A stretch of DNA of 64,000 nucleotides from an uncultured Phycisphaerales bacterium (GTDB lineage Bacteria > Planctomycetota > Phycisphaerae > Tepidisphaerales > Tepidisphaeraceae). The notes below the pieces were generated by a model, which had not been told where the DNA came from, searched no databases, and worked only from the letters and a program-made list of their open reading frames with translations. This document shows, piece after piece, positions 27,783 to 35,026 of this stretch (position 1 is the stretch's first letter; each line of letters begins with the position of its first letter). The translations under genes were made by a program, and so were the position numbers. Where the stretch lies: the NCBI GenBank assembly GCA_963844715.1, contig CAWJPJ010000007.1:1280001-1344000 (forward strand). The letters run 5' to 3'.

Positions 27783-30329
27783 TCAAGTTGCGTCGCTAGA
27801 CGCCGCCGGCGCGGCGACGGGTTTGTCGCCGGCGGCGGCCTTTTCGTCGGCGGTGTTGACGGCATCGAAGTACAGATGCTTATCGCCGGCCTCTTCGGTC
27901 TTGACGCTGATGCGGATCAGGTCCTTGCCTTTGAAGTTGCCGCGGAGGATTTCCTCGCTGAGCGGGTCCTCGACGTTTTGCTCGATGGCCCGACGCAGCG
28001 GGCGGGCGCCGAAATCGGTGCTGGTGCCCTTGTCGATGAGGAAGTCGCGGGCTTCCTGCGTCAATTCGATCTTCATGCCATGGTCGATAAGGCGCTTGGT
28101 GACCTTGCGCAGCTCGAATTCGACGATGTGCTCGAGATCATTCCGACCCAGCGGGCGGAAGACGATGACGTCGTCGAGACGTCCGATGAATTCGGGACGG
28201 AAGTATCGCTCGATTTCCTTTACCAGAGTCTGCTTGATCGTCTGGTAGGTGCGTTCTTCCTTTTCGCCCTTGCGAGAGGGTTGAAGGCCGAACTGCGGGC
28301 CGCCGTCCTTGATCAGTTCAGCGCCGATGTTGCTGGTCATGATCATGACGACGTTGCGGAAATCGACATGCCGGCCGAAGGAGTCGGTCAGACGGCCTTC
28401 CTCCATGATCTGAAGGAGCATGTTGAAGACGTCGGGGTGCGCCTTCTCTACTTCGTCGAGGAGGACGACGCTATACGGCCGGCGGCGGATGCGCTCGGTG
28501 AGCTGCCCGCCTTCCTCGTAGCCGACGTAGCCCGGAGGCGCGCCGATCAGGCGGCTGACGTTATGCTTCTCCATGTATTCGCTCATGTCGATCTGAACGA
28601 GGGCGTCCTGATCGCCAAACATAAACTCGGCCAGGGCCTTGCTGAGCAGCGTCTTGCCGACGCCGGACGGGCCGAGGAACAGGAACGACCCCATCGGGCG
28701 ATGCGGGTCTTTCAAACCCGAGCGGGCCCGGCGAATGGTTTTGCTGATGGCCTTGATCGCCTCGTCCTGGGAGACCACGCGCTTGTGGAGTTCGTTTTCC
28801 AGTTCGAGCAGGCGCTGTGCCTCTTCTTTTTCCAGGCGGGTGAGCGGCACGCCGGTCATTTTGCTGACGACTTCGGCGACGACTTCCTCGTCCACGACGC
28901 CGTCCACTTCCTTGGCCCGCTCGCGCCACTGGCGCTGCATCTCTTCCTTCTTGGCTCGCAGGCCCTCGGCCTGATCGCGGAGCTTGGCGGCTTCCTCGTA
29001 TTCGGCGTTGCGAACCGCCTCGTCCTTGGAAATGCTCAGCCGCTCGATCTGCTCCTCGATTTCCGCCAGATTCGGGGGCTTGGTCATGCTCCGCAGGCGG
29101 ACGCGAGCGCCGGCCTCGTCGAGGACGTCAATGGCCTTATCCGGCAGGCAGCGCCCGGTGATATAGCGGTCGGATAACTCGACTGCGGCATCCAAAGCCG
29201 AGTCAAGAATCTGCACGCGGTGATGCGCTTCGTACCGGTCGCGCAGGCCCTTGAGGATTTCGATCGTATCGGTGCTGCTGGGCGGATCGACCGTGATCGG
29301 CTGGAATCGCCGCGCCAGAGCCGCGTCTTTTTCGATGTACTTGCGGTATTCGTCGAACGTCGTCGCGCCGATGCACTGAATCTCGCCGCGTGAGAGCGCG
29401 GGCTTCAGAACGTTGCTGGCGTCGATCGCCCCTTCAGCGCCGCCGGCGCCGACGAGGGTGTGTAGCTCGTCGATGAAGAGGATGACGTTTTTGGCGCGGC
29501 GGACTTCGTTCATGACCGCCTTAATGCGCTCTTCGAACTGTCCGCGATATTTGGTGCCGGCCACCATCATCGCCAGATCGAGCACGACGATGCGGCGGTC
29601 GTGCAGAATCTCCGGCACGTTGCTGGAGACGACCATCTGCGCCAGACCTTCGACGATCGCCGTCTTGCCGACGCCGGCTTCGCCGAGGAGAACGGGGTTG
29701 TTCTTCTGGCGTCGGCAGAGGATCTGGATGACGCGTTCGATCTCGTTTTTCCGGCCGATGACCGGATCGAGTTGTCCTTCGCGGGCCAGTTCGGTCAGAT
29801 CGCGGCCGAAGCTGTCCAGCGCCGGGGTCTTGCTTTTACGGTTCTGTCCCTGTTTTTCCTGAGCTTGGGGTTCTTCGCTTTCCACGCCTGCTCCCAATAG
29901 GTTCAAAACTTCTTCCCGAACTTCCTCGAGCTTGAGGCCCAGATTCATGAGCACCTGCGCCGCGACACCGTCGTGTTCGCGAAGCAGGCCGAGCAGCAAA
30001 TGTTCCGTGCCTACGTAATTGTGATTCAGGTTCCTGGCTTCCTCGATTGCGTATTCGATGACTTTCTTGGCCCGCGGGGTCTGTGGGAGTTTTCCCATGG
30101 TGACCATATCCGGGCCGCTCTTGACCAGCTTTTCGACTTCAAGCCTTACCTTACGAAGATCGACATCCAGATTCTTGAGCACGTTAGCTCCGACGCCGGA
30201 GCCTTCCTTCACGAGGCCGAGCAGGATGTGCTCGGTGCCGATGTATTCGTGATTGAAGCGCTGGGCTTCCTGGTTAGCCAGCGCCATGACTTTTCGTGCC
30301 CGGTCCGTGAATCGTTCGAACATGTCCAT
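27783..30329 (-). CDS. clpC: ATP-dependent Clp protease ATP-binding subunit ClpC
   Basis: [13 protein letters not shown]-domain; two AAA+ modules ([16 protein letters not shown]); UVR coil. Confidence 0.97.
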
Positions 30330-30557
30330 CTCCTGTGGCCGGCGCTTGTTGGGCGCCGGTCCCTCTTTCGGATTTCAGCCAATGCCGCCGGGGGACGCCT
30401 TTTGAGCGGCCCCCGATTGTAGGGGCGGCTGCCCCGACGAGGCAATGTCTGGGACGGCGGCCGATCGAGAATAATATCGGCTCAATTTTAATACGCGGTG
30501 AACCTTCGCTTTCACGCCTTGAGATCGGCCGGTACTTCGCCGATAACAACGCCACCG

Positions 30558-31229
30558 ATGTCTTTAATCCATCAGCTTCTGGACCTGGTCCTGCACCTCG
30601 ACAAGCACCTGAACAGCTTCGCCGCGGATCATCAGACGGGCGTTTATGTGCTTCTGGCGGCAATCGTCTTCTGCGAGACCGGGCTGGTGGTCTGGCCCTT
30701 TTTGCCGGGGGATTCGCTTCTGTTCGCGGTCGGAGCACTGGCGGCGACGGCGGGGTCGCCGATCAACCTGCCGCTGGTGATCGTTTTGCTCTGCCTATGC
30801 GCCAATTGCGGGGATGTGCTGAATTACACGGTTGGCTATCGCGTGGGCCCAAAGGTCTTTAGCCGGGACTCGACCTGGCTGCTTAACAAGAAGCACCTGG
30901 ACGAGGCGCATCGCTTTTATGACAGACATGGGCGCAAGACCATCATTTTGGCCCGGTTCGTGCCGATCATCCGGACCTTCGCCCCCTTCGTCGCGGGGAT
31001 CGGGAAGATGCCATTTTCACGATTTATCGGGTTCAGCATCAGCGGCGGCGTGCTCTGGGTCTGCGCGATGACCCTGGCCGGTTACTTCTTCGGACAAATC
31101 GCCGTGGTGAAAAGTCACTTCGAGATCGTGATCCTGGCGATCATTGCGATCAGTCTGATCCCGATGGCGATTCACGCGCTTCAATCGCGGAGCAAATCGG
31201 CGGCAGCTTTCGAAATGAAAGTCGATTGA
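30558..31229 (+). CDS. DedA family membrane protein
   Basis: FCETGL..PFLPGDSLLF; LARFVPIIRTFAPFVAG. Confidence 0.95.
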   Translation: MSLIHQLLDLVLHLDKHLNSFAADHQTGVYVLLAAIVFCETGLVVWPFLPGDSLLFAVGALAATAGSPINLPLVIVLLCLCANCGDVLNYTVGYRVGPKVFSRDSTWLLNKKHLDEAHRFYDRHGRKTIILARFVPIIRTFAPFVAGIGKMPFSRFIGFSISGGVLWVCAMTLAGYFFGQIAVVKSHFEIVILAIIAISLIPMAIHALQSRSKSAAAFEMKVD

Positions 31230-31261
31230 ACAGTCGCCAGCAAATTAGGGCAATTATATAC

Positions 31262-31290
31262 TTGACAACTCTGGTTGATTTCCGTACAAT
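31262..31290 (+). promoter_or_regulatory. Sigma70-type promoter for the transposase (TTGACA-17-TACAAT)
   Basis: -35 box lies inside the left TIR; ATG follows 6 nt after the -10 box. Confidence 0.75.
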
Positions 31291-31296
31291 TCCGGC

Positions 31297-32319
31297 ATGA
31301 ACACGAGCAATGACAAAATCAAGATGCCGAAAACGCTGATGGAAGCCGTTAAGTATTTCGCGGTCTATGAAAACGCCCATGAGTTTTTCGTCAATGTCCG
31401 CTGGTCGAACGGCGTGGTCTGCCCACGGTGCGGATCGACCGAAGCCAACTATAATCCGAAGTATCGACGATTCCAGTGCAATCGAACCCACAACCTTCGG
31501 CAGTTCACGGTAAAAACCGGAACCGTCATGGAAGATTCGCCGCTAGGTCTGGACAAATGGGCCATCGCCTTTTGGTTGGAAGTCAACGCCAAGAATTCTA
31601 TTAGCAGTTGCGAGATTCACCGGGCGCTGGGGATTACTCAAAAGTCCGCGTGGTTCATGTTGCATCGCGTCCGTCACGCGCTACACGTCGGATCGTTCGA
31701 TAAGAAACTCTGCGGAACAATCGAAGCCGATGAAACCCTGGTGGGGGGACTTGCCAAGAACATGCACAAGAAACAGCGTGAAGCGCGAGTCCACGGCATG
31801 ACCGGCGGAACACACATGACTCCGGTCATGGGATTGCTTGAACGGCATAGCGGGAAAAAGCATAGCACTGTCCGCGCCACGGTTGTTCCGAACCGCCAAA
31901 AGGAAACTCTCCATGATGTAATTCACCGGAACGTCGAACCGGGTGCGCAGGTTTTCACGGACGCACTCATGGGATATCGCGGGATTGAATCGACTTTTGC
32001 CCACGATTTTGTTGACCACGCCGAAGCGTATGTCAAAGGCGCGGTTCATACGAACGGTTTGGAAAATTTCTGGGCGCTGTTCAAAAGGTGCATCAAGGGA
32101 ACGCACGTTTCGATTGAGCCATATCACCTTGCGGCTTATGTGGATTCCGAAGCCTACAGATTTAACCACCGAGAAACCGATGATTTCAATAGGTTTTTCG
32201 GCGCTCTTCGGGGCATTTCCGGCAAGCGACTGGATTATCGGACGCTGATCGGCAAAAATGACATGGAGCCGGATTCAGAAAACGGCAAGGGCGCGGGAAG
32301 CGTAACGCCCGACGCATAA
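31297..32319 (+). CDS. IS1595 family DDE transposase
   Basis: CPRC..FQC Zn ribbon; HTH (LGITQKSAWFMLHRVR); EADET, TD, HTNGLENFW, Y...RFN. Confidence 0.95.
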   Translation: MNTSNDKIKMPKTLMEAVKYFAVYENAHEFFVNVRWSNGVVCPRCGSTEANYNPKYRRFQCNRTHNLRQFTVKTGTVMEDSPLGLDKWAIAFWLEVNAKNSISSCEIHRALGITQKSAWFMLHRVRHALHVGSFDKKLCGTIEADETLVGGLAKNMHKKQREARVHGMTGGTHMTPVMGLLERHSGKKHSTVRATVVPNRQKETLHDVIHRNVEPGAQVFTDALMGYRGIESTFAHDFVDHAEAYVKGAVHTNGLENFWALFKRCIKGTHVSIEPYHLAAYVDSEAYRFNHRETDDFNRFFGALRGISGKRLDYRTLIGKNDMEPDSENGKGAGSVTPDA

Positions 32320-32333
32320 CAGAAACGGTCTAC

Positions 32334-33104
32334 ATGCCGAAACAAGTCACCTTCAGCACAAAGCGAACGGGGGGAAAGGTGACGGTGCGCGAGCTTATAG
32401 ACGTGCTAGGAAAGGCAATGAAATGGCTTCGCACCCTTGATCCAGATTCCCCCGTCGAATGGGAAGTCGTCAAGATAAAAATGGGTGAGCGGCTTAGCCT
32501 TACCTTTAATAATCCACAAGCCAACGGAGCAGTCACGAGCGGAATGGGTGAATTGCGTTCTCTCCAACAAAAAAGAAAACCGAAAATCGCGCCGAGACTC
32601 AGTAGTGCCGTTATTGAAAGCACGAGGGAATTAGCGCAAGTTTTGGGAACTGGCTTTGAATCCCTTATGATTTCCTCCCCCGGCGTTCGCGCTGTAAAGG
32701 TCACGCCCAATTTGGTCAATCGCGTGGCGGAACTTTCCAAACCAACTCCGGTTTTCCGAACGGAGTGGACGACGATTGAGGGCATAATGGATCAGGTAAC
32801 AGTCGAGACAGATAAATCTCGATTCAGGATATCCCATCCACTTACAGGTGAAGAAATAACTTGCACCTTCGATCAGGGAGTAGTTAATCTTGAAGATGTA
32901 AAAGAAGCGCTCCCGCATCGAGTTGCGGTATATGGTCGCGCGAGGTTGGATCGCATGGGCAAAACCACTTCCATCGAAGTGTCCAAACTTACCCAACTCC
33001 GCGATGAATCTGAATTTCCGCGGATCGCGTCGATGCCTAGCATTGATATAACCAGCGGGATGGACCCGGCTGATTATGTGGAAAGGGTAAGGGGTGGCGA
33101 GTAA
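32334..33104 (+). CDS. Hypothetical protein, putative large antitoxin partner of the PIN nuclease
   Basis: Overlaps the PIN gene by 11 nt; beta-rich C-terminal half; DITSGMDPADYVERVR tail resembles VapB-type tails. Confidence 0.65.
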   Translation: MPKQVTFSTKRTGGKVTVRELIDVLGKAMKWLRTLDPDSPVEWEVVKIKMGERLSLTFNNPQANGAVTSGMGELRSLQQKRKPKIAPRLSSAVIESTRELAQVLGTGFESLMISSPGVRAVKVTPNLVNRVAELSKPTPVFRTEWTTIEGIMDQVTVETDKSRFRISHPLTGEEITCTFDQGVVNLEDVKEALPHRVAVYGRARLDRMGKTTSIEVSKLTQLRDESEFPRIASMPSIDITSGMDPADYVERVRGGE

Positions 33105-33723
33105 TCTTCTACCTCAGATCGCGTGGGATTCCTGTATCGTCATCCATTTTTTAGAACAGACGCCAGGAAATTTTCCTGTAATTTTTCCAATCGCTAAAGA
33201 CGCGGAAGATAAAAAACTAAAGATCGTTGTGTCCATGCTCACGATTGCCGAAACGCTTCGATTGACGGGAACGTTATCGGCCGATCAGGAAACCATAATT
33301 TCTGATTTTTTTGAGCGTCCATTCGTACACCGCGAATCAGTCGGACTTTTCATTGCCGAACGCGCTCGGGACATTCGAAGAAAATATGAAGTGGACAGCG
33401 CCGACTCTATCCACATTGCGACAGCGGCGCAGACAAATAGCCAATTTTTCCTAACTTACGACGGAACGAAAAGAAGAAACAAAAAGCCACTTCTCAAGCT
33501 CGATCAACAGATTTTTCTTGCCGATGGTTCTCCCCTTCGGATCGTGACGCCGGAAGAGTATGATAATATTCAACGACTAAAGGCGCAACCGCTAGTGGCC
33601 TTGGCGACCGATACGACCGTGACTCCAGAAACGCCGGCAGCGCAAGCAGTCGAACCGCAAACGCCAGTCGCGCAACCAGAGACAGAAAAACCTTCCGCAG
33701 ACGCCGGAAATATCAATGGCTGA
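33094..33723 (+). CDS. PIN domain (VapC-like) ribonuclease
   Basis: WDSCIVI, SMLTIAE, DSIHIATA, FLTYD acidic PIN motifs. Confidence 0.88.
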   Translation: MASNLLPQIAWDSCIVIHFLEQTPGNFPVIFPIAKDAEDKKLKIVVSMLTIAETLRLTGTLSADQETIISDFFERPFVHRESVGLFIAERARDIRRKYEVDSADSIHIATAAQTNSQFFLTYDGTKRRNKKPLLKLDQQIFLADGSPLRIVTPEEYDNIQRLKAQPLVALATDTTVTPETPAAQAVEPQTPVAQPETEKPSADAGNING

Positions 33724-33822
33724 AAACACCCTCTTCGTCGAAGTCTCTGAAAAAACTATCCCGGTGAAAGATGATTCTCGGCATCGACGCATGAGGCGCG
33801 GTATAATGCAACTGGAGAACAC

Positions 33823-33986
33823 ATGAAACAATCCCACCACAAGACAGCGAATGACGTATTAGTGACAGATGGCGCAGCAGCCATGCGGAAAACGATTCTC
33901 GCGGCACGCGGGGCGTGGCCGTGCCAAAGTCAAAAATCGACGCGGAGATGGCGAAGGAAAAGTCGGGACGATCTAAGCGAAAGTGA
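33823..33986 (+). CDS. Small basic protein at the IS right end (probable 1-nt frameshift ~33915)
   Basis: TATAAT and GGAG upstream; restored frame ...AARGALAVPKSKIDAEMAKEKSGRSKRK*. Confidence 0.5.
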
Positions 33987-34051
33987 ATCGGGGCGCGTTA
34001 GGATTTCCGGCAGATCGGCAGCGTGAGTTGGCAAGTATATAATTACCCAAA

Positions 34052-35026
34052 TTAGGGCCAGAGGGGCGTGCCTTCCAAACCGGCGGTTTCCGGTAATCCA
34101 CACATCAGATTGGCATTCTGCACAGCCTGCCCGGCGGCGCCTTTGCCGAGGTTGTCGATCGCGCCAAGAGCGACGATCGACCCATCCCCGGCCGAGGCGT
34201 AGGAAACGAACGCCAGATTCGAGCCGGTGGCCCATTTGGTATGCGGCGGCTGTTCCGACACACGCACGAAAGCGCGCCCGGCGTAAAACTTCCGTGCGGC
34301 GGCGAAGCATTGCTCGGTTGTGGCTTGTCCGCGCAGGTAGCATGTGGCCAGGATTCCGCGCGTCATGGGGATTAGATGGGGTGTGAAAATAATTTGCGCG
34401 GCCTTATCGCCGAGGAGAGACTGGGTCGTTGCGGCGATTTCGGGGACGTGAACGTGTTTGAGCAGGCCGTACGCTGAAACGTCTTCATTCACTTCGGCAA
34501 AGCCGAGCTTGGATTCCCCACCGCGCCCTGCGCCGCTGACCCCGCTCTTGGCGTCGATGATGATCGGCGAATCCGCGGCGACGATTTTTGCCGCCAGCAA
34601 CGGAGCGATCGCAATCAGCGACGCCGAGGGATAACACCCCGGATTCGAGACGCGATTGGCTCCACGAATCTTCTCCGGCCAGACATCCGCCAGACCGTAA
34701 ACCCAGCCGTCGGCGTACCGATGATCGCCGCCAATATCGACGATTTTGACATTCGATCCCAAGCCTTCGAATGCTCCGCGCGAGGCACCCGTCGGGAGGG
34801 ACGCGAACAGCAAATCGAGGTTTTTCTGGCTCTGGGGATTCCAGGTTTCGATGGTGAGGTTTGCGAGTTTCGAATGAACCCCCGGATACCGCTCAACTAG
34901 CTTCTTCCCGGCGGAGGTTTCGCCGGAAACATGAACGACTTCAAAATTGGGATGGGTTGAGCAGAGGCGGAGGATTTCCCCGCCGCCATAGCCGCCTACA
35001 CCGAGGATTCCAACGCGAATGCCCAT
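34052..35026 (-). CDS. argC: N-acetyl-gamma-glutamyl-phosphate reductase
   Basis: GYGG, SNPGCY, SGVSGAGR, AIDNLGKGAAGQAVQNAN. Confidence 0.95.
   Translation of the reverse strand: MGIRVGILGVGGYGGGEILRLCSTHPNFEVVHVSGETSAGKKLVERYPGVHSKLANLTIETWNPQSQKNLDLLFASLPTGASRGAFEGLGSNVKIVDIGGDHRYADGWVYGLADVWPEKIRGANRVSNPGCYPSASLIAIAPLLAAKIVAADSPIIIDAKSGVSGAGRGGESKLGFAEVNEDVSAYGLLKHVHVPEIAATTQSLLGDKAAQIIFTPHLIPMTRGILATCYLRGQATTEQCFAAARKFYAGRAFVRVSEQPPHTKWATGSNLAFVSYASAGDGSIVALGAIDNLGKGAAGQAVQNANLMCGLPETAGLEGTPLWP

Follow-up and report, generated by a model that had tools for sequence, protein, structure and literature searches.

Introduction

VapBC modules are type II toxin-antitoxin (TA) systems in which a PIN-domain toxin with four acidic residues is encoded behind an overlapping antitoxin gene, and in which the C-terminal tail of the antitoxin lies in the active-site groove of the toxin. 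A gene pair of this plan occurs inside an insertion sequence (IS) of the IS1595 family in a 64,000-nt stretch, here called the window, of the genome of an uncultured Phycisphaerales bacterium (Planctomycetota; GenBank assembly GCA_963844715.1, contig CAWJPJ010000007.1, positions 1,280,001 to 1,344,000). Four acidic residues and the upstream, overlapping partner gene are shared with VapBC, and the tail is predicted to lie in the same groove. Unlike a small VapB, the partner protein has 256 amino acids (aa), with an N-terminal domain (N-domain) and an OB-fold, together called the body, ahead of the tail. By Pfam it has no AbrB, RHH, Phd or HTH domain, and its structure model consists of an alpha/beta domain and an OB-fold.

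Two further systems resemble the pair in part. PDC-M32 is, in the available part of Payne et al. (10.1101/2024.01.29.577857), one of 145 candidates that are embedded in defence operons, and it is reported from a Sinorhizobium prophage in the available part of PMC12429752. PDC-M32A has the same two-domain body; in contrast to the partner, it has a C-terminal domain of ~110 aa and occurs with PDC-M32B instead of with a PIN protein. The window's proteins match neither the PDC-M32A nor the PDC-M32B model. PD-T4-10 is described, in the available part of PMC9519451, as a validated TA-like abortive-infection system in which a large DUF6575 protein (B) is toxic and a small protein (A) neutralises it. 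It also consists of two overlapping genes, and the body is found in some relatives of its B subunit that contain DUF6575. However, the Escherichia coli B subunit shares only DUF6575 with these body-bearing proteins, and the large subunit of PD-T4-10 is the toxin. Neither a DUF6575-bearing B subunit nor an A subunit was found among the window's proteins with Pfam and PADLOC.

Transporter elements of the IS1595 family share with the present element the transposase, short terminal inverted repeats (TIRs), an 8-bp target duplication and downstream passengers. Known passengers are resistance, regulator or methylase genes, and differ from the TA pair seen here. In CapRel, CmdTAC and systems with a Panacea domain, one part of the antitoxin serves several toxin classes or also senses phage. 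The present pair is comparable in this respect; in contrast to those systems, its toxin-binding tail varies and its body is constant, and no sequence or fold match to them was seen. Type II TA systems and IS1595 elements with passengers are thus already known, and what is new here is an undescribed modular antitoxin body. A search of mainly open literature, which did not extend to supplementary Tables S3-8 of 10.1101/2024.01.29.577857, gave no description of the pair or the body, and no paper on TA or defence cargo of the IS1595 passenger type.

Results

The PIN protein, its partner and their predicted complex

The downstream gene encodes a PIN nuclease (PF01850, E 1.2e-9) whose closest solved relative is VapC 7by2 (E 1e-7). 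It has the acidic residues D12, E53, D104 and D123, and 42 of 49 aligned PIN proteins from partner loci retain the full set of four. The C-terminal ~45 aa are rich in Pro, Ala and Gln, and are unconserved.

The partner gene, which the first-pass annotation had correctly described as a 256-aa frame overlapping the PIN gene by 11 nt, has a product with no match in Pfam, NCBIfam or PADLOC and no solved relative by sequence. The family comprises 478 representatives at 50% identity, mostly of 245-280 aa; the best 150 of these were taken for alignment, giving 125 near-full-length rows, among which no Pfam domain is common. The only invariant residues of the body are G150, C177 and G201, a set that does not look catalytic. 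The tail is conserved, with the consensus LPxxxDxxxIDITGGxDSxxYVRRLRD; a match of the tail in the PDB (9if7_63, E 0.03) was taken as chance. The structure model has a confidence (predicted local distance difference test, pLDDT) of 92, and of 90 for the N-domain. The best match of residues 1-119 of the N-domain to known folds is a weak one to ACT/ferredoxin-like structures (Z 6.1, root-mean-square deviation (rmsd) 2.9, 78 residues aligned), and there is no match with Foldseek at E 0.001 and none in the Atlas, which does not imply a new fold. Over residues 139-226, by contrast with this weak match, 53 chains with an OB barrel are found at Z >= 8 (Foldseek E 7e-5), the best being an MCM OB domain (Z 9.9, rmsd 3.7, 79 aligned), and SSB reaches Z 9.7. 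The modelled OB-fold resembles those of SSB, RPA and anticodon-binding proteins. This is a fold of the nucleic-acid-binding type, as far as the model goes, and a shared fold alone shows no function.

When partner and PIN are modelled together, the score of the complex is 0.76, whereas the best of three controls has 0.00. Of the solved complexes, 116 of 157 reach the same mark, as do 2 of 215 mismatched pairs; these counts are rough (own alignment). At least 88% of the contacts agree between runs, and the pLDDT of the partner is at least 80. In the model, partner residues 222-253 cover PIN residues 12-23, 53-58 and 121-126, the best contacts being those of partner 236-249 with PIN 13-22 and 53-54. 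The OB-fold is predicted to dock on the PIN protein through residues 142-149, 169-172, 196 and 205-209, and no N-domain residue is named in the predicted interface. The tail is thus predicted to plug the active site of the PIN protein, and the OB-fold to dock next to this tail.

Co-occurrence and distribution

Searches with the partner profile were positive in 17 of 151 relatives; among genomes of the phylum, with the host counted, 18 of 401 matched. A pattern built on the tail gave 44 loci among GTDB genomes and one viral contig, all 45 being true homologues, with titles naming Planctomycetota, Chloroflexota, Armatimonadota, Acidobacteriota, Gemmatimonadota, Bacillota and others. Scoring was done on 58 loci: the profile searches contributed 14 that have this tail type, and the pattern the other 44. 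L084 was dropped as a duplicate, and L054-L059, which have other tail types, were kept separate. Whether homologues of the two genes keep company had been raised by the first-pass annotation. A PIN gene lies downstream of the partner in 56 of the 58 loci, once as a remnant only, and the overlaps are mostly -8, -11 or -14 nt. The pattern-derived loci are biased, because the codon overlapping the start of the PIN gene forms part of the tail pattern; among the 14 unbiased loci, found with the whole profile, the PIN gene is present in all. Strong matches to the tail alone in 251 genomes number nine, of which seven have the full body and a PIN gene and two are remnants. Since none of the nine sits on a small antitoxin, the idea that the tail is a module of small VapB proteins was rejected. 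A metagenome scan that used the single partner protein gave 75 pattern matches, none of which was confirmed.

With this co-occurrence, the predicted tail cap and the comparison with PADLOC, in which the pair matched no characterised system, the earlier description of the locus, as a TA-like module that is mobile and has an oversized partner, holds. The pair is very probably a type II TA system with an undescribed modular antitoxin body.

Reuse of the body with other tails and partners

Proteins that match the profile less well are longer and combine the same body with different ends. Tails of the WPGDE or WxDDxDF type precede another PIN clade; 14 of 20 such loci are PIN-like by motif, and two are confirmed by Pfam. 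Loci where the body with other tails stands before other PIN genes include L030, L054 and L107, the last with an NLDHYLYG-type tail. It precedes HicA at L056 (confirmed by Pfam, PF07927) and possibly at L055, which was not confirmed; the end of the proteins preceding HicA is presumably HicB-like. Full PDC-M32A is found before PDC-M32B, which may be ADP-ribosyltransferase-like, at L058 and L059 (E 6e-156 and 5e-54). PDC-M32A is matched weakly by 8 of the 125 aligned partner-family members, and L106 and L107 match its first 256 positions strongly, with partner-profile scores of 44 and 30 bits.

Proteins with DUF6575 bear the body at their C-terminus (hhalign 96.8%, E 2.5e-10, 221 columns), and an independent body profile matches 8 of 9 of them; behind DUF6575 the body carries no tail. 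Because the body occurs with varied tails, and the tail without the body occurs only in remnants, the body can be regarded as the constant part and the tail as the toxin-dependent part. The two-domain body is likely a swappable trigger, as it also precedes other toxin types.

Two side observations concern DUF6575. In the protein P0174 a PD-T4-10A-like domain is naturally fused to DUF6575 and the first part of the body, which ties the small PD-T4-10A-like protein to DUF6575. Comparison of L113:2501-3592 with A5 shows DUF6575 joined either to the body or to the uncharacterised part of PD-T4-10B, so that DUF6575 looks like an adaptor domain.

The IS1595 element

The element extends over 31249-34047 (2,799 bp; Table 1), and CAAATTAG is identical on both flanks. 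The transposase matches Pfam DDE_Tnp_IS1595 (E 2.6e-35), has a Zn ribbon, and scores 158 bits with NCBIfam NF033547 (cut-off 75); a DDE transposase with Zn ribbon, TIRs and an 8-bp duplication place the element in the IS1595 family. Its ends (GGnnATTAT) presumably fit the ISNwi1 group, which a literature search did not confirm. The -35 box of the predicted promoter falls within the left TIR, and this promoter would drive transposase, partner and PIN as a single unit. The G+C content of the element is 50.7% (transposase 52.5%, partner 50.1%, PIN 48.4%), compared with 59.7% for the contig. The cargo is AT-richer than the host, as first thought, and this property is not restricted to the cargo.

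Table 1. Features of the IS1595 element and its flanks (window coordinates)
Feature	Position	Strand	Basis or remark
DedA/VTT-domain gene, host flank	30498..31229	+	Pfam domain
Left copy of 8-bp target duplication CAAATTAG	31241..31248	.	sequence match
Left TIR, 23 bp	31249..31271	+	21/23 bases agree with right end
Sigma70-like promoter TTGACA-17-TACAAT (predicted)	31262..31290	+	11/12 consensus matches
IS1595-family transposase, 340 aa	31297..32319	+	Pfam and NCBIfam
Partner, 256 aa, predicted antitoxin	32334..33104	+	starts 14 nt past transposase stop
Partner N-domain, aa 1-138, alpha/beta, weakly ferredoxin/ACT-like	32334..32747	+	structure model
Partner OB-fold, aa 139-226	32748..33011	+	structure-model comparison
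Partner C-terminal tail, aa 228-256, 29 aa	33015..33101	+	alignment, complex model
PIN/VapC-like nuclease, 209 aa	33094..33723	+	PF01850; overlaps partner frame by 11 nt
Right TIR	34025..34047	-	match to left end
Right copy of target duplication	34048..34055	.	contains argC stop codon
argC-like semialdehyde dehydrogenase, host flank	34052..35026	-	Pfam domain

Both flanking genes, DedA and the one that we take to be argC, are whole, because the right copy of the duplication holds the argC stop codon. An empty site is seen in a genome of the same genus (G001), where dedA and argC are adjacent with 29 nt between the matches; in another genome (G002), 926 other bases separate the two genes. At neither dedA-argC locus is there a match to the transposase or the partner. 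With its TIRs, exact duplication, whole transposase and this empty site, the element is indeed intact, as had been noted at the start. Contigs of sequencing run X1, possibly the source sample, span the left junction with no differences and the right junction with one; the contigs of four runs contained no excised or empty form and no joint across the element. The element is present as a single copy in the host.

Some further features of the element and its relatives may be mentioned. The right TIR has an outward-reading TATAAT (10/12 promoter match, 34015-34043) facing the end of argC, and the ~300 bp ahead of this TIR (33724-34024) hold no clear gene. There are three further IS1595 transposases in the host, all without the partner/PIN cargo. 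An element of ~2.2 kb at G000:C7:645553 has a transposase 66% identical, TIRs, the 8-bp duplication CTATTTAG and different passenger DNA. Another, of ~1.9 kb, has its left end near 107088 (minus strand) of G000:C8, the duplication TATTTTTG, and as passenger a 131-aa open reading frame (ORF) that is hydrophobic and membrane-like. The third transposase, near 28500 of G000:C8 (minus strand), has a CGG-type left end, and no right end was found within 5 kb.

Mobility and decay across loci

An IS1595 transposase lies directly upstream in 12 of the 58 loci, and IS1-type ends or transposase are present in 4, making 16 IS-associated loci; paired TIRs with a duplication agreeing at 7 or more of 8 bases were found at nine. 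The proposed spread by simple insertion sequences thus applies to these loci, and the other 42 have no IS evidence. The pair is not mainly IS cargo, since the IS is only one of several vehicles. In a quick version of the partner tree, the IS-borne partners fall on scattered branches; the IS-borne pairs may still have a single origin with losses. In the temperate Pseudomonas phage PQ349086 the pair comes directly after the phage repressor, with the same 11-nt overlap; its gene _055, labelled 'repressor protein', is a PIN nuclease (PF01850) paired with a partner homologue beside the real repressor (L112:2536-3895).

Three loci show other arrangements. L069:3225-7398 is a 4.2-kb IS1595 element with a broken pair and a DNA methylase gene within its TIRs. 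L091:3432-5629 (oriented) is a 2.2-kb element with IS1-type ends and the pair, in which no transposase was detected, and is possibly a non-autonomous cassette. The viral contig L104 has two IS1595 transposases back to back, with the pair after one of them.

Decay takes different forms. The partner is whole and the PIN gene broken at L041, L068, L075 and L086, while at L042 and L100 the N-domain is broken or lost and the OB-fold, tail and PIN are whole. Decaying IS-borne copies are found at L041, L043, L049, L069 and L093. Single frameshifts in these assemblies may be errors.

Defence context

Of 278 called neighbour ORFs, 270 were scanned, from 57 loci; PADLOC matches to generic kinases, ABC ATPases, cysteine desulfurases and S-adenosylmethionine methylases were not scored as defence. 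A DNA methylase or restriction-modification (RM) gene is near 11 of the 57 loci, or 8 after merging kin. By our own arithmetic, ~1.8% would be expected per locus, from 8 such genes in the 4.55-Mb genome of the host, the only genome used as background. At L065 and L095, remnants of the partner on the opposite strand separate the hsdM/hsdS genes from hsdR in a type I RM locus. As to defence islands and other mobile elements, the analysis gave the RM neighbours, the IS-associated loci and the one temperate phage, and no plasmid.

A link to PD-T4-10 was suggested by the fold search and the Atlas, through the DUF6575 proteins that carry the body. It was rejected, as E. coli PD-T4-10B does not contain the body (hhalign 0.6%; -0.8 bits, like shuffled sequences). 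PD-T7-1 as the DUF6575 system was dropped because RefSeq labels the PD-T4-10B gene DUF6575. Searches for PDLC04024 found nothing in 5 and in 301 genomes.

Discussion

The best explanation of the locus as a whole, to which we assign a probability of about 0.5, is an IS1595-borne TA pair in which an RNase is plugged by the tail of its antitoxin and the body acts as a trigger, most likely for phage infection. The promoter at the left IS end would co-express transposase, partner and PIN. The PIN protein would be an RNase toxin, which the 29-aa tail of the partner would keep inactive. The body might then receive a signal that would displace the tail and free the RNase, leading to abortive infection; this signal could be a phage protein, or single-stranded nucleic acid of the phage bound at the OB-fold. 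Direct computational support covers only the first half of this mechanism. Binding by the tail and the OB-fold is predicted from models; that PIN is toxic, that the tail rescues the cell, that the body senses a signal and that infection is aborted are steps that we infer. If the pair is a type II TA system, use of the body as a trigger in defence is somewhat favoured. An anti-phage or sensor role is plausible, with indirect support from the RM neighbours, the position beside a phage repressor and the presence of the body in PDC-M32A.

Several points weigh against this explanation. The case is wholly computational. The complex score may partly stem from likeness to solved VapBC pairs, and an OB-fold in an antitoxin could merely bind DNA or RNA for autoregulation. 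A strict requirement for the tail is contradicted by L089, where the tail is out of frame and PIN whole, and by L053, which has no tail match, unless these are assembly errors; the broken PIN genes could equally be such errors, except for the deletion at L041. As to defence, the window's proteins have no PADLOC match, none of the 49 PIN proteins matches a PIN-type defence model, and this copy sits between housekeeping genes. Because E. coli PD-T4-10B lacks the body, no validated defence protein is linked to it. There is no RM neighbour at 46 of the 57 loci, and RM proximity is expected of any mobile gene, the background being that of one genome. PQ349086 is the only match in 50,697 phages, the plasmid search gave 0 of 72,556, and the tail pattern gave a single match in IMG/VR.

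The main rival is an addiction or stabilisation module, in which the body only binds the operator or transcript of its own genes, or determines the half-life of the antitoxin, and the pair keeps the IS or island in place with no phage trigger. The same TA evidence (complex model and co-occurrence) applies to it, 16 of the 58 loci are IS-associated, transcription of the operon would start in the end of the IS, the lack of AbrB, RHH and Phd means that the body could replace such a domain, and the window's lack of a defence match fits as well. We nevertheless consider it rather unlikely. A chromosomal IS, on general knowledge, gains little from addiction; the N-domain is dispensable in two loci with a whole PIN gene, but the body is retained in full in different phyla and with different toxin classes; and the body also occurs behind DUF6575 without a tail. 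That last arrangement bears on a further reading, with the polarity reversed: in DUF6575 proteins the body occupies the place of the uncharacterised C-terminal part of PD-T4-10B, and the available part of PMC9519451 describes that B protein as toxic and A as neutralising. The body would then be the toxic effector, guarded by the small protein (PIN, HicA or PDC-M32B-like). The four loci with a whole partner and a broken PIN gene, the acidic residues retained by PIN, and a body with no catalytic-looking invariant set make this very improbable.

The docking of the OB-fold on PIN in the model, and its resemblance to the folds of SSB, RPA and anticodon-binding proteins, would also suit a targeting subunit that delivers single-stranded nucleic acid to PIN, in an active nuclease complex gated by the tail and acting on phage or transposition intermediates with no cell killing. 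Since the modelled tail covers the catalytic residues, and the same body precedes the unrelated folds HicA and PDC-M32B, a poor fit for a dedicated subunit, such a role is improbable. Finally, the pair might be a neutral hitchhiker, captured by the IS ends with no benefit in this setting, in line with the many decaying IS-borne copies and with the three other IS1595 copies of the host, which lack this cargo. All three genes are whole here, however, and both IS1595 and IS1-type elements carry the pair repeatedly, on scattered branches and in more than one phylum, so that only a slim chance is left for this explanation.

A wider and more tentative proposal, itself doubtful, is that the N-domain and OB-fold form a general chassis for infection sensing. 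Interchangeable tails would fit it to at least three PIN clades, HicA and PDC-M32B-type partners, and IS1595 and IS1-type elements would spread it between phyla as a self-expressing anti-phage cassette of 2.2-2.8 kb, which would be about the smallest mobile defence unit possible. The body represents a widespread, unnamed antitoxin architecture that links the PIN pair, the HicA pairs and the candidate PDC-M32. If it is a sensor, simple insertion sequences become vehicles of defence, and the body would bear on the question of how phage triggers are acquired by TA systems; should it be no more than a regulator, it would still be a substitute for VapB of a new kind, and unusual as the passenger of an IS.

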